Both the position numbers and the translations under genes were made by a program. 64,000 nucleotides of DNA. Origin: Shigella phage ESh15. The notes below the pieces were generated by a model, which was not told the DNA's origin, searched no databases, and saw nothing but the letters and a program-made list of their open reading frames with translations. Numbering within the stretch: position 1 is the stretch's first letter; the number at the start of each line of letters is the position of its first letter. The stretch is taken from sequence record ON528725; one strand, written 5' to 3'. Below, piece by piece: positions 43,986 to 46,662 of this stretch.

Positions 43986-44318
43986 TCACTTATAAAGACA
44001 CGGAATAGCTTTATAGTGGCATGTTACGAATTTCTGTTTAATTTCTTTAGGTTGTTTAAGTCCCAAAGCCACAAATGGATGTGGAACATTTCGAATTTGT
44101 CCAACTGGTAGTGGAGTCAAATCACCGACTTCAACAAAACCTTCAGGAACATCAGGACCTACAGAATGAACTACACATAGTTCAGGAACTTCACCTTGAA
44201 CACGTTTACCAATCACAAGTCCTGATTCGGTAACTTCTTCATCACCTGCTTGAGCAGGTTCAGAAACCAGAATGACATATTCACCAACAGCACGAATTGG
44301 GAGTTGTACTTCAGACAT
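43986..44318 (-). CDS. 31: gp31 co-chaperonin (GroES analogue)
   Basis: 110 aa; near-identical to recalled T4 gp31. Confidence 0.95.
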
Positions 44319-44375
44319 CTTATTTCCTTGTTGTTTGACGATAGATTAATAATACCATACTATTCGTAAAGCATA

Positions 44376-44684
44376 TTACATAAGAAGCAAACGTTCTACC
44401 GGAGTACCATCAACCGAAATTACTTTATCAAGGCGGAAAGAACGCCACTGACCTAACTTGGTATCGAATGCTCGAACTGATTCACGAGGTTCATAACGAA
44501 CTTCTGTTGCCGGATTGTTATTTTCATATTTGACTTCAAGTTCATCGCGCGAAGCAAACATAGTGCGTACCTCACCGTTAGCCTTTTCAAATACAACACA
44601 ATGAACGCCTACAGACAGAATAGTTTTAATACGTTCACGAAGAACCATAGTTTCTTGTTCAGTTAAAATCATATTATTCACCAC
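44376..44684 (-). CDS. Hypothetical protein (position of T4 31.1/31.2)
   Basis: 102-aa ORF between cd and gene 31. Confidence 0.6.
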   Translation of the reverse strand: MVNNMILTEQETMVLRERIKTILSVGVHCVVFEKANGEVRTMFASRDELEVKYENNNPATEVRYEPRESVRAFDTKLGQWRSFRLDKVISVDGTPVERLLLM

Positions 44685-45255
44685 AAAAGTTTCGAATTTG
44701 TTCCCAATTCAGAGAACGAAGATTATTACGAGAGTACTGAATTACTTCAATACCAGCTTGTTTAAGAATGTCTGCCCAATTTTCAGGAGATCGGTCATAT
44801 AATTCTGCATATACAACCTTTTTAATACCTGACTGCGTAATAGCTTTAGTGCAATCAGGACACGGAGAAAGCGTCGTATATAACGTAGCACCTTCAATAG
44901 AATTACCTTTACGAGCTGCAAACAAAATTGCGTTCAGTTCCGCATGGATTTCGTTATTAGCAGACCATGCACTATGAGCGGCCCGGTGTTCTTTAGCCAA
45001 AACAAAATTATCGGCCCGTCCAAATGCTGTAGTGCCTTCTTTATGTCCAGCAACGATGACCGGACTTGGTTTATTCTTCAACCAGCCTTGTTCAGTAGCA
45101 TGGTCACAACAGTTTATACCACCTGAAGGAGAGCCATTATATCCAGTAGAGATAATGCGTCCATCTTTTTCAATGACTGCGCCAACTTTCCATGAACAAC
45201 ATTTTGATTCTTGAGAAATCAGATATGCAATCTGAAGGTATGTGCTAGCTTTCAT
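44674..45255 (-). CDS. cd: dCMP deaminase
   Basis: 193 aa as in T4; zinc-binding HAE and PCxxC motifs; near-identical to recalled T4 Cd. Confidence 0.95.
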   Translation of the reverse strand: MKASTYLQIAYLISQESKCCSWKVGAVIEKDGRIISTGYNGSPSGGINCCDHATEQGWLKNKPSPVIVAGHKEGTTAFGRADNFVLAKEHRAAHSAWSANNEIHAELNAILFAARKGNSIEGATLYTTLSPCPDCTKAITQSGIKKVVYAELYDRSPENWADILKQAGIEVIQYSRNNLRSLNWEQIRNFCGE

Positions 45256-46247
45256 TATTGAACCTTATTAATATAAGTTAACAGCTCTTTAGTTTGTTCC
45301 CAACTGATGCACGCATCGGTAATGGAAACGCCATAGGACATATTATCAGAAATTTTTTGATTTCCTTCATGTAGGAACGATTCTATCATAATTCCTTTGA
45401 CCAAATCATTAGCTGCTAAATTTTTACCAATACCAATTTGATTGCTATAATGCCCATCAGCGTTTGCATGGCTACAGTCAACCATTACATAATGATTCAG
45501 ACCTACTGCCCTTGCTTTGTTAGAAGCTTCTTGAATATCAGAAGAATGATAGTTTGGGCCATTGGTCCCACCACGCAATACGATATGCGTATTCTGATTA
45601 CCTTCAGCTTCAACAATGCCTACAGTACCATCGACGTCCATACCCATATACCGATGAGGCCAGGCGGCACTATACATCGCGTCTGTAGCTACTTTAATAG
45701 AACCATTGGTTGCGTTCTTAAAGCCTACGCACATCGGTAGACCTGAAGCAATTTCACGATGTGTCTGACTTTCAGTCGTACGGGCGCCAATAGCAACCCA
45801 TGAGAAAATACCAGAAAGATACTTAATCGTGAATGGGTCTAATACTTCAGTTGCTAATGGAAGTCCCATACGTAGAAGTTTACGACACAATGTTCGTGCA
45901 ACTATAAGACCGTGGTTCATATCAAAACTTCCGTCAAGATATGGATCATTTACAAGACCTTTCCAACCTACGGTAGTTCGAGGCTTTTCAAAATAAACGC
46001 GCATCACTAACAGAACATTAGGAAGACGAGTTTGAAGTTCAGCCAGACGTTTGCCGTATTCAACAGCAGCAATAGGGTCATGAATTGAACAAGGACCTAC
46101 AACAATAAGTTTGCGTGGGTCTTCACCGTTCATAATCGAATTAACTTGTTCGCGATGAGAAGCCACTTGTGATGCGTAAGCTTCCGACAAAGGAATAATC
46201 TCAGCCAGTTCTTTTGGAGAAATAAGTTTTCCGACGACAGGTAACAT
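45255..46247 (-). CDS. Class-I DAHP synthase (3-deoxy-7-phosphoheptulonate synthase, AroG/F/H-like)
   Basis: 330 aa; conserved blocks VGPCSIHDP, VMRVYFEKPRTTVGWKGL, GARTTESQ, ILRGG, ESFLHEGNQ, SITDACI.WE shared with E. coli AroG; stop overlaps the cd start (TAATG). Confidence 0.85.
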   Translation of the reverse strand: MLPVVGKLISPKELAEIIPLSEAYASQVASHREQVNSIMNGEDPRKLIVVGPCSIHDPIAAVEYGKRLAELQTRLPNVLLVMRVYFEKPRTTVGWKGLVNDPYLDGSFDMNHGLIVARTLCRKLLRMGLPLATEVLDPFTIKYLSGIFSWVAIGARTTESQTHREIASGLPMCVGFKNATNGSIKVATDAMYSAAWPHRYMGMDVDGTVGIVEAEGNQNTHIVLRGGTNGPNYHSSDIQEASNKARAVGLNHYVMVDCSHANADGHYSNQIGIGKNLAANDLVKGIMIESFLHEGNQKISDNMSYGVSITDACISWEQTKELLTYINKVQ

Positions 46248-46367
46248 AACAATCCTTAGGAGATATAAACAGATTCTGATTCAACAATACCTTTAACCGG
46301 ATTAGACAGGCTAAGTTGGTAGTGCTCAGATTTATGACCATTCTCTATAGTAATGAGATAGCTCTCA

Positions 46368-46604
46368 TTATAGTGTTCCATATACTCGAGTTGCTTCAAC
46401 AAGACCATCACTGCCTAATTTAAGATTAGTAATTTGGTCACCATCTTTAGGATTAACGATTATGAGAAAAGAACGTGGAGATTCTTGAATAACTCGTAAT
46501 GTTGCATCCTGGAAACGTTCAGACACTTTATTGATGAGTGCTTGAGCAAATTCTTTTACTTTAATCTGAAATTCGTGTACTGTAATTGGATTTTCACTTA
46601 GCAT
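46368..46604 (-). CDS. Hypothetical protein
   Basis: 78-aa ORF with GAGGAA RBS and early-type promoter upstream. Confidence 0.6.
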   Translation of the reverse strand: MLSENPITVHEFQIKVKEFAQALINKVSERFQDATLRVIQESPRSFLIIVNPKDGDQITNLKLGSDGLVEATRVYGTL

Positions 46605-46632: not shown

Positions 46633-46662
46633 ATAGTACCACAACTCCACCATGTTGTAAAC
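46633..46662 (-). promoter_or_regulatory. Early-type promoter GTTTAC-N18-TACTAT
   Basis: Minus-strand GTTTACaacatggtggagttgtggTACTATaact. Confidence 0.5.

Follow-up and report, generated by a model that had tools for sequence, protein, structure and literature searches.

A type I-alpha DAHP synthase gene in a Shigella phage: remodelled inhibitor pocket and possible link to 5-hydroxycytosine synthesis

The closest described relatives of the enzyme discussed here are AroF, AroG and AroH of E. coli (TIGR00034; PDB 6agm, 1kfl and 1qr7), whose inhibitor pocket is where metabolic engineers introduce mutations for feedback resistance. In AroG, the P150L and S180F variants are feedback-resistant by experiment, Q151 has been implicated in inhibition by Phe, and both Q151 and S180 contact the inhibitor through its backbone (PMC9529685). 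In Bacillus and Listeria, type I-beta enzymes of the AroA(Q) kind are bifunctional and combine DAHP synthase with chorismate mutase.

A second group of described systems concerns hydroxylation. Prephenate is the organic oxygen donor for Fe-S enzymes of the peptidase-U32 family in O2-independent hydroxylations; one of these, RlhA, makes 5-hydroxycytidine and requires both prephenate and Fe-S (PMC5727448). Phages of the genus Mosigvirus and their relatives produce arabinosyl-5-hydroxycytosine, with every cytosine being replaced; labelling with 18O2 showed that the ThyA-like 5hodCMP synthase uses O2, and in RB69 the 5-hydroxycytosine cluster includes a U32 protein, gp50, without an assigned role (PMC13326640). 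The synthesis of 5-hydroxycytosine (5hoC) is flavin-dependent, and the ThyA homologue alone suffices for it in aerobic E. coli. Acinetobacter phage DLP3 makes 5hoC from a cluster lacking a U32 gene; Acinetobacter is a strict aerobe.

The DAHP synthase gene and its setting

The window analysed here is a stretch of 64,000 nucleotides from Shigella phage ESh15 (ON528725). Judged from its sequence, the 330-aa open reading frame at positions 45255-46247 on the minus strand encodes an intact type I-alpha DAHP synthase that retains all metal, PEP and E4P residues, and the protein is thus expected to catalyze the metal-dependent reaction of PEP and E4P to DAHP and Pi. As an annotation this is ordinary: GenBank already calls the gene DAHP synthase, and because many entries (about 200 records of T4-like phages) do so, its existence is not new. 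The reading frame starts with ATG and cannot be extended upstream in frame; a Shine-Dalgarno-like AAGGA, read directly from the sequence, is found 5 nt upstream of the start codon (46253-46257, minus strand).

A complete class I enzyme had been predicted from conserved motifs, and the profile searches match it far beyond chance. The protein scores 252.6 bits against Pfam DAHP_synth_1 (PF00793; E=4e-75, cut-off 25.5, residues 36-323), 427.9 bits against the aroFGH model TIGR00034 (cut-off 173.2) and 455.3 bits against NF009395 (cut-off 343), while the models for the single isoenzymes AroH (386.9 bits vs 463) and AroG (363.4 bits vs 568) stay below their cut-offs. The best match in the PDB is E. 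coli AroF (6agm; E=7e-105, ~51% identity), and identities to the three isoenzymes range from 44 to 51%. An AlphaFold2 model of the phage protein (pLDDT 91.3, pTM 0.91) has the (beta/alpha)8 barrel with the I-alpha N-terminal helices and the beta6a/6b hairpin, which is also kept in AroF, AroG and AroH (fold similarity TM 0.95); in Foldseek, it superimposes on the enzymes from N. meningitidis, E. coli and F. tularensis with TM values of 0.94-0.96 and an rmsd of ~1.6 A. The phage enzyme differs from the E. coli isoenzymes in being shorter (330 aa vs 348-356 aa), in being phage-encoded and in its coupling to dCMP deaminase.

Alignment to AroG, AroF and AroH shows that the catalytic residues are identical. 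The metal ligands are C53, H260, E289 and D311 (AroG C61, H268, E302 and D326), which are invariant in all phage homologues; the PEP-binding set is kept as R83, K88, G154-A-R156, K177 and R225 (AroG R92, K97, G163-A164-R165, K186 and R234), and the E4P motif KPRT is intact at K88-P-R-T91. About 80 alignment columns are invariant among the phage homologues, with every catalytic residue among them. Of the sequence blocks originally said to be shared with AroG, VGPCSIHDP, VMRVYFEKPRTTVGWKGL, GARTTESQ, SHAN (within CSHAN), ESFLHEGNQ and SITDACISWE were read in the 330-aa protein, whereas the ILRGG of AroG is VLRGG in the phage enzyme. The KPRT motif distinguishes DAHP synthase from KDO8P synthase. 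We considered a role in making the arabinose donor, given the similarity of these two enzyme families and the arabinose-5-P isomerase of the 5hoC cluster, and rejected it: KPRT and the DAHP synthase profile scores oppose it, RB69 arabinosylates its DNA without the gene, and the pathway as published calls for no reaction of this kind.

The gene lies directly upstream of cd, the gene for dCMP deaminase (44674-45255, minus strand; Pfam dCMP_cyt_deam_1, E=1e-25). The last A of its TAA stop codon (45257-45255) is the first base of the cd ATG, and since stop and start share this one base, the TAATG overlap proposed in the original prediction is real. Further upstream, and in the same transcription unit, is a homologue of cd.2 (DUF7320; 46368-46604, minus strand), assigned by Pfam and by the annotations of RB69 and T4. 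The 120-nt spacer between cd.2 and the DAHP synthase gene (46248-46367, minus strand) opens with a degenerate version of the initial cd codons. A 12-nt direct repeat, with copies 1113 bp apart, brackets the gene: the first, TAATGAGAGCTA (46359-46370, minus strand), contains the cd.2 stop and, by comparison with RB69, a remnant of the cd start, and the second, TAATGAAAGCTA (45246-45257, minus strand), contains the DAHP synthase stop and the true cd start. In RB69 the arrangement is cd.2-TAATG-cd, without the DAHP synthase gene. Comparison with T4 bears out the proposed placement where that phage has small cd.x frames; its cd-pseT interval holds only cd.1-cd.5, and the DAHP synthase gene occupies the cd.1 slot.

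A sigma-70-like promoter candidate, TTTACA-17-TACTAT with a TG element, was found in the gap between cd.3 and cd.2 (46633-46661, minus strand) by a consensus scan in which the number of sites is not above chance; we infer the assignment from the T4 annotation, which has an early promoter in the matching gap. The 120-nt spacer directly upstream of the gene holds no MotA-type middle or sigma-70 promoter, and sites resembling promoters or terminators are no more frequent than expected by chance. Scanning the window for tRNA genes and Rfam families gave no match.

The inhibitor pocket and the shortened N-terminus

The N-terminus had been noted to differ from that of AroG, and it proves to be truncated in all 25 sequences of the phage clade: the stretch ahead of the catalytic Cys is 48-52 aa long, compared to 58-95 aa in 97 cellular homologues. 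The N-terminal residues belonging to the inhibitor site of AroF, AroG and AroH (about 6-13; roughly the first 8-10 aa) are absent from the phage enzyme. Alignment and residue mapping place a second change in the pocket loop itself. Codons 45810-45839 (minus strand) specify D137-P-F-T-I141-K142-Y-L-S-G146, and the AroG counterpart is D146-M-I-T-P150-Q151-Y-L-A-D155. Throughout the phage clade (n=25), the substitutions are P150I, Q151K/R, D155G/N, S180P and F209Y in AroG numbering, and the residues of the window enzyme at these sites are I141, K142, G146, P171 and Y200. I141, K142 and G146 are each 96% conserved in the phage clade, while cellular enzymes have P150 (90%), Q151 (100%) and D155 (98%) at the matching sites; the separation is complete at position 151, with K or R in all 25 phage-clade proteins and Q in all of about 97-98 cellular homologues. 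S180 and F209 are likewise near-invariant in the cellular enzymes. Conservation of the pocket within the clade is 0.93, compared to 0.75 overall, and among 80 viral DAHP synthase loci an IKGPY signature is limited to the T4-like clade.

The same positions are altered in engineered feedback-resistant enzymes (AroG P150L, S180F, D146N and Q151 variants; AroF P148L and related variants) (PMC9529685), but in the phages several sites have changed jointly and have then been strictly conserved. The pocket gives the impression of reconstruction, possibly to fit a different ligand, rather than of plain damage. It had been suggested that feedback regulation may differ from that of the host enzymes, and the combination of P150I, Q151K, D155G and S180P with the truncated N-terminus strengthens this suggestion; together, these changes predict that control by Phe, Tyr or Trp is lost or retuned, and the strong conservation of the remodelled pocket could indicate retuned, not lost, regulation. 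The clade-wide shortening and pocket remodelling appear to be a new observation; our literature search, with incomplete coverage of papers from 2025-2026, found no experimental work on phage DAHP synthases. As a natural, phage-specific I-alpha lineage rebuilt in the very pocket that is mutated for feedback resistance, these enzymes are ready candidates for use and an example from which to learn how allostery evolves.

Distribution among phages and association with the U32 protein

The DAHP synthase gene is found in 212 phage records and the U32 gene in 221, with nearly alike host-genus profiles. Its position, pseT-DAHPS-cd, is common to the four genera Mosigvirus, Marfavirus, Winklervirus and Bragavirus. 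That the gene is a recently captured host gene or a decaying passenger without a role in infection, as the viability of RB69 without it and the easy gain or loss suggested by the flanking repeat might be taken to imply, is very improbable, as the conservation data already speak against it. No cellular homologue is more than 55% identical, while identities within the phage clade span 56-100%, and the GC content of the gene (41%) is near phage level, on which grounds we rejected recent host capture; synteny is kept in four genera, some 80 columns are invariant, and more than 139 Mosigvirus copies are free of frameshifts. Within Mosigvirus, the copies show 5-14 differences, too few for an informative dN/dS.

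Across phage records and IMG/VR contigs, DAHP synthases of this clade were found only in phages with the 5-hydroxycytosine/U32 cluster, a restriction that also appears to be a new observation. All eight of the large T4-like IMG/VR contigs with a clade DAHP synthase also have the U32 gene, and seven U32-positive T4-like contigs have no DAHP synthase. Since related phages share ancestry, their co-distribution does not count as independent evidence in a phylogenetic sense. The two genes are not neighbours in these phages; the DAHP synthase gene, adjoining cd, is ~100 kb away from the U32 cluster. The U32 assignment itself was made with phiC120 gp159, which is 99.5% identical to RB69 gp50 and scores 42.2 bits against PF01136 (cut-off 22.4). 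Members of this phage subfamily have 10 invariant Cys residues, including a C-terminal CX4CX3CX2C motif. In a weakly scoring alignment with UbiU, equivalents of C193 and C232 can be aligned, while the segment with C169 and C176 is missing.

Chorismate mutase provides a further connection. In Kanagawa-, Marfa-, Winkler- and Tegunavirus, among others, a chorismate mutase gene (CM_2, 40.9 bits vs cut-off 27) lies between the genes for the U32 protein and 5hodCMP synthase. None was detected in Mosigvirus, the genus of the phage studied here, either in the genome parts examined or by tblastn across its records, so the step from chorismate to prephenate would there need host PheA or TyrA. A 79-aa Mosigvirus reading frame at the chorismate mutase position was considered and set aside, as it matches nothing in Pfam or NCBIfam nor a custom chorismate mutase HMM, and because it co-exists with a true chorismate mutase in some phages it is a different gene. 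In viral contigs that are not T4-like, a type I-beta DAHP synthase stands directly beside a gene of the same U32 subfamily at six loci, and four of these (L047 and L049-L051) encode it as a fusion with chorismate mutase at the C-terminus; the fusion genes adjoin U32 and nucleotide-kinase genes, and no arabinose genes were seen in their contigs.

These patterns bear on what the enzyme is for. The original prediction had it as an auxiliary metabolic gene; the DAHP synthase identity behind this stands, and an amino-acid purpose is the least supported part, given the confinement to 5-hydroxycytosine/U32 phages. In its classic form, a deregulated DAHP synthase lifts chorismate flux towards Phe, Tyr and Trp for phage proteins after host shutoff, exactly as proposed, without data, for Klebsiella phage KLB31 (PMC11845039). 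In favour of this, the enzyme is a bona fide DAHP synthase whose catalytic residues are intact and whose feedback site is altered. Still, we consider it unlikely: the gene is absent from T4 and many other T4-like phages with 5-hydroxymethylcytosine (hmC), whose protein needs are equal, the hosts inhabit amino-acid-rich habitats, no phage copies of the later Phe, Tyr and Trp branch enzymes were seen, and other viral lineages have DAHP synthase-chorismate mutase fusions beside U32, among genes of nucleotide metabolism.

Another use of the enzyme would be to rewire carbon flux, where draining E4P and PEP pulls the non-oxidative pentose-phosphate reactions towards pentoses, nucleotides and UDP-arabinose, with DAHP as a by-product. 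Arabinosylation in these phages begins at ribulose-5-P (PMC13326640), and such a drain would also explain the co-distribution with the arabinosyl-5hoC cluster and the place among nucleotide-metabolism genes. However, it leaves unexplained both the chorismate mutase beside the U32 gene and the fusions beside U32 where arabinose genes were not seen, and as pentose formation itself passes through E4P, the effect of a drain would be stoichiometrically ambiguous; we regard this explanation as improbable.

We think it slightly more improbable still that the enzyme supplies another chorismate-derived cofactor, such as p-aminobenzoate for folate, quinones or enterobactin. The gene is translationally coupled to cd in a nucleotide-metabolism region, T4-type synthesis of dTMP and hmC is folate-dependent, and frd and td are presumably also present beyond the window, in a T4-like organisation. 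But the carriers are those phages that swapped folate-dependent hmC for flavin-dependent 5hoC synthesis, while folate-using hmC phages lack the gene, and the associated chorismate mutase leads away from p-aminobenzoate and quinones.

A possible prephenate supply for cytosine hydroxylation

Confinement of the enzyme to 5hoC/U32 phages, its absence from T4 and hmC relatives and the occurrence, in independent viral lineages, of a DAHP synthase, sometimes fused to chorismate mutase, beside U32 point to prephenate, not Phe, Tyr or Trp, as the product that the phage most likely wants. We thus propose, with about even confidence, that an active and deregulated DAHP synthase supplies prephenate for O2-independent cytosine hydroxylation of the U32 type. 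The enzyme would be made early in infection, from a cd.2-DAHPS-cd message, and would condense PEP and erythrose-4-phosphate. With a rebuilt pocket and a shorter N-terminus, it should escape inhibition by Phe, Tyr or Trp, and an enzyme insensitive to these inhibitors should drive carbon into the shikimate pathway of the host even when amino acids are abundant; under such conditions, the host isoenzymes would be repressed and inhibited while the phage enzyme would still be running. The U32 protein of the cluster would act as an anaerobic cytosine hydroxylase, in the service of camouflaging the DNA. Its prephenate demand would be stoichiometric, at roughly 6x10^4 cytosines per genome and millions per burst, and would be covered by the DAHP synthase, aided in many relatives by chorismate mutase.

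Several observations weigh against the proposal. RB69, which has no DAHP synthase gene, nonetheless has fully modified DNA under aerobic growth, the ThyA homologue is enough for 5hoC in aerobic E. coli, no chorismate mutase was detected in Mosigvirus, the DAHP synthase gene is far from the U32 cluster, seven U32-positive contigs lack it, and the phage U32 protein matches UbiU weakly. We consider it possible, though with somewhat less confidence than the proposal above, that these phages reach the hydroxyl group in two ways: one by the flavin- and O2-dependent ThyA homologue, the other by the U32 Fe-S protein with oxygen from prephenate supplied through DAHP synthase. Such pairs are known, as in UbiI/H/F vs UbiU/V and TrhO vs TrhP, and the phages likewise have a U32 protein alongside an aerobic enzyme that uses flavin and O2. 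In line with a prephenate route, the 5hoC cluster without a U32 gene belongs to DLP3, a phage of the strictly aerobic Acinetobacter. Such a route would bear on the question of how phages of the gut, an anoxic habitat, could produce a base modification that derives from O2.

The likeness to the prephenate-dependent U32 systems (RlhA for ho5C2501, TrhP for ho5U34, UbiU/UbiV for ubiquinone) is that a Cys-rich U32 protein is encoded with prephenate-making enzymes, and RlhA in particular carries out on rRNA exactly the chemistry that the phage needs, C5 hydroxylation of cytosine. They differ in that the proposed phage substrate is a deoxynucleotide or DNA, with genome-wide stoichiometry, that the supply enzymes are virus-encoded, and that the phage proteins form a separate U32 subfamily of about 360-390 aa without DUF3656, in which two of the four UbiU cysteines are alignable. 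No report found in our search, with the same incomplete coverage of 2025-2026 papers, connects U32 and the 5-hydroxycytosine of phages with chorismate or prephenate.

The DAHP synthase, chorismate mutase and U32 neighbourhoods thus suggest a testable function for the U32 protein in the recently described pathway to 5-hydroxycytosine. If true, a shikimate-pathway gene would have been recruited for DNA hypermodification, in what would be the first case of a virus using an organic oxygen donor, and auxiliary genes of amino-acid pathways in phages would have to be reread, as their target may be an intermediate and not the amino acids. The proposal also predicts weaknesses of therapeutic Mosigvirus phages that depend on oxygen and on the aro genes of the host.

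Outside the T4-like phages, the viral fusions resemble in general kind the bifunctional AroA(Q) enzymes of Bacillus and Listeria. The window enzyme differs from that kind in being type I-alpha and unfused, and the viral fusions are set apart by a C-terminal chorismate mutase domain and by their place beside U32 and nucleotide-kinase genes.

Identity of the enzyme and its inhibitor pocket

The window contains a single 330-codon minus-strand ORF at 45255..46247, which the original prediction had read as a complete class-I DAHP synthase (DAHPS). The motifs on which that reading drew are found in the ORF, and profile searches passed the cut-offs of Pfam DAHP_synth_1 (E=4e-75), TIGR00034 aroFGH (428 bits vs 173) and NF009395 (455 bits vs 343); the AroG- and AroH-specific NCBIfam cut-offs were missed. 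The best solved relative is E. coli AroF (6agm, E=7e-105; query 8-327 on chain 17-344). Alignment with AroG, AroF and AroH reveals that all four metal ligands are retained (C53, H260, E289, D311). So are the PEP-binding residues R83, K88, G154-A-R156, K177 and R225 and the KPRT erythrose-4-phosphate motif, both here and in eight diverse homologues from phages. The AlphaFold model (pLDDT 91, pTM 0.91) has a TM score of 0.95 to solved DAH7PS structures. Judged by sequence and predicted structure, we conclude that the ORF is a genuine type I-alpha DAHPS.

The gene has already been annotated: it is named phospho-2-dehydro-3-deoxyheptonate aldolase, AroG or AroF in dozens of GenBank records, its domain was noted in the phiC120 paper (PMC8022965), and a paper on a Klebsiella phage counts it, as a hypothesis only, among amino-acid auxiliary metabolic genes (PMC11845039). 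Our literature search found no experimental work on the phage enzyme. The functional context proposed here, in DNA hypermodification, is new and testable.

A homologue search covering 5.8 billion proteins placed the phage enzymes in a discrete clade of 319-343 aa with 56-100% identity to the window protein, whereas cellular enzymes have 341-385 aa and at most 55% identity. The N-terminal region was predicted to differ from that of AroG, and it does so by being shorter: 48-52 residues precede the catalytic Cys in 25/25 clade members, compared to 58-95 in 97 cellular homologues (P0022 excluded). The short N-terminus is real, since the ATG is the earliest possible start after the in-frame stop; it is preceded, 5 nt upstream on the minus strand, by the ribosome-binding site AAGGA.

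The inhibitor pocket differs as well. At AroG positions P150, Q151, D155, S180 and F209, cellular enzymes keep the AroG residue in 90, 100, 98, 98 and 100% of cases, while the phage clade has I, K/R, G/N, P and Y, respectively. In AroG, the inhibitor backbone receives hydrogen bonds from Q151 and S180, and a stabilising salt bridge is provided by D155; P150L and S180F lead to feedback resistance, and Phe inhibition has been linked to Q151 (PMC9529685). As the new residues are almost invariant within the clade (pocket conservation 0.93 vs 0.75 for the whole protein), the site looks rebuilt rather than decayed, and may have been either fixed as inhibitor-blind or retuned to another ligand. In a set of 80 viral DAHPS loci from IMG/VR, the phage signature (IKGPY) is restricted to the T4-like clade, and 56 others, many from giant-virus MAGs, keep the cellular PQDSF. 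On sequence grounds, the phage gene is a distinct I-alpha variant with apparently remodelled regulation. Dozens of putative giant-virus, metagenome-assembled contigs (GVMAG-named in IMG/VR, L076-L143) carry type I-alpha homologues with 40-50% identity and canonical PQDSF.

The locus and its history

The window phage is a Mosigvirus, of the RB69 group of T4-like phages. Its DAHPS gene has 95-99.6% DNA identity across 139 phage records, and the encoded protein matches its PhAPEC2 and EP32B counterparts at 100% identity. The dCMP deaminase gene cd (44674..45255, minus strand) follows directly downstream, and small DUF genes and the polynucleotide kinase gene pseT lie upstream. The DAHPS stop TAA and the cd ATG have one A in common (TAATG), an overlap of the translational-coupling type, as had been noticed from the sequence. 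The same reading held that T4 has just small cd.x ORFs here, in agreement with the T4 annotation: its cd-pseT interval contains only cd.1-cd.5, and the phage DAHPS occupies the cd.1 slot. The order pseT ... DAHPS ... cd is conserved in Marfavirus F48, Winklervirus X20 and Bragavirus PM2, and the GC content of the gene (41%) is near the phage level (38%); the gene is therefore old within the T4-like group.

RB69 is without DAHPS, and its cd.2 is joined to cd via TAATG. In the window, a 12-nt direct repeat, TAATGA(G/A)AGCTA, flanks the 1.1-kb DAHPS segment (46359-46370 and 45246-45257); the upstream copy is a remnant of the cd start-codon region, and a deletion between the two would yield the RB69 arrangement exactly. 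RB69 cd (L005:6743-7252) is annotated with 169 aa, while window and T4 cd have 193 aa; in RB69 the DNA alignment continues upstream as far as the longer start and beyond, and the shorter annotation is probably due to an internal start codon or to a difference in sequence.

A promoter scan of the 120-nt spacer upstream of DAHPS found none. A sigma-70-like site at 46661-46633, in the cd.3/cd.2 gap, matches the position of an annotated T4 early promoter, which makes it plausible that cd.2, DAHPS and cd are transcribed together early. Between the window phage and phi25-307 (L063), dS is 0.03 for DAHPS vs 0.22 for the adjoining cd, suggesting that mosaic recombination has occurred, with its breakpoint close to where the two genes meet. 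Directly upstream of a gene 31 co-chaperonin homologue (43986-44318) lies a MotA-box-like match to a middle promoter, TGCTTTAC...TATTAT (44349-44373, minus strand); in T4, gene 31 has a middle promoter here.

Co-occurrence with a U32 protein and chorismate mutase

The DNA of RB69 and its relatives has arabinosylated 5-hydroxycytosine (5hoC) instead of hmC; a flavin-binding ThyA homologue synthesises 5hodCMP with O2 as the oxygen source, and the gene cluster includes a U32 'collagenase-like' protein, RB69 gp50, without assigned role (2026 paper, PMC13326640). DAHPS is carried by Mosig-, Braga-, Marfa-, Kanagawa- and Kagamiyamavirus, all among the 5hoC lineages listed there, and also by Winklervirus, which is missing from that list. 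One rival explanation is that DAHPS affects E4P/PEP flux in a way that aids a ribulose-5-P-derived arabinose pathway.

The U32 gene (phiC120 gp159, the RB69 gp50 homologue; L010:20061-21221) is located outside the window, inside the 5hoC/arabinosylation cluster, which in the window phage is far from DAHPS. The Mosigvirus protein scores above the Pfam cut-off. Identity across T4-like genera is 82-100%, far above DAHPS conservation; 10 Cys are invariant, some of them in a C-terminal CX4CX3CX2C motif, and of the four canonical cysteines two have no aligned counterpart. U32 occurs in 221 phage records and DAHPS in 212, with nearly equal host-genus profiles, and all 8 of the large T4-like contigs in IMG/VR that have clade DAHPS also carry U32, although co-distribution among relatives is non-independent evidence. 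Seven U32-positive T4-like contigs, including Yersinia and Pectobacterium phages, are without DAHPS. DAHPS, chorismate mutase or both are kept in every examined U32-positive T4-like lineage but RB69.

The chorismate mutase of Kanagawavirus Entb_45 (79 aa, L011:5658-5897; Pfam CM_2 40.9 bits vs cut-off 27) lies between the U32 and 5hodCMP synthase genes. AroQ-type homologues of 75-79 aa occupy this site in 51 phage records, in phages of Klebsiella, Serratia, Yersinia, Enterobacter, Edwardsiella, Erwinia, Pectobacterium, Providencia, Morganella and Shewanella and in EcS1; a local HMM added Proteus phages. Chorismate mutase was undetected in Mosigvirus, where an unrelated 79-aa ORF occupies the site; both genes coexist in some phages.

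Independent evidence comes from unrelated large-phage contigs, where the U32 subfamily (~50-58% identity, 10 invariant Cys) neighbours dCMP deaminase, thymidylate-type kinases, NT5C, dNK and glycosyltransferases. A type I-beta DAHPS directly adjoins U32 in six non-T4-like loci: as a stand-alone 248-aa protein (L019:10001-11891; L036:8284-10127), or fused to a C-terminal chorismate mutase (L047:8399-11080; L049:3-2681; L050:7290-10067; L051:8323-11074). The closest PDB match of the stand-alone form is the DAHP synthase of Pyrococcus furiosus, an unregulated enzyme; KDO8PS scores far lower. DAHPS of two classes has thus been recruited to accompany the same U32 protein, in some cases as its direct neighbour, and one class occurs fused to a prephenate-making enzyme.

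A proposed role in prephenate supply

The U32 Fe-S protein RlhA makes 5-hydroxycytidine in 23S rRNA and needs the shikimate pathway to prephenate (PMC5727448), and for the U32 proteins UbiU/V, the anaerobic counterpart of flavin/O2 hydroxylases, prephenate is the oxygen donor in O2-independent ubiquinone synthesis (PMC10990095). The phages likewise pair an O2-dependent flavin enzyme with a U32 protein and prephenate-making genes. Based on this parallel, we propose that the phage U32 protein is an O2-independent cytosine hydroxylase, acting at the nucleotide or DNA level, and that DAHPS, with or without chorismate mutase, would increase its prephenate supply. Demand would be stoichiometric: ~6x10^4 cytosines per genome (38% GC, ~169 kb) amount to millions per burst, far above the normal uses of cellular U32 enzymes. 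Abundant aromatic amino acids repress and inhibit the DAHPS isoenzymes of the host; an inhibitor-blind phage enzyme, made early, would suit this demand.

The proposal gives the gene a testable functional setting in DNA hypermodification. While the original prediction was right about the enzyme, the purpose it implied, that of an auxiliary metabolic gene for aromatic amino acids, is probably not the true one; amino-acid boosting is a rival explanation, as is the feeding of another chorismate product. Prephenate supply is consistent with the near-universal retention of DAHPS or chorismate mutase in the U32-positive T4-like lineages examined, and with DAHPS loss in RB69, which has long been propagated in the laboratory. 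U32 is missing from the 5hoC cluster of DLP3, a 5hoC-making phage of the strictly aerobic Acinetobacter, and this absence is likewise consistent with the proposal.

On large metagenomic phage contigs, where the vicinity contains no ThyA homologue, this U32 subfamily consistently lies amid genes for deoxynucleotide metabolism and DNA glycosylation: paired with dCMP deaminase (L016, L020), with NT5C, dNK, radical SAM/SPASM and another U32 (L017/L018), or with glycosyltransferases, TAGT-like, dUTPase/DCD and GLF genes (L021). These settings hint at further, undescribed base modifications.
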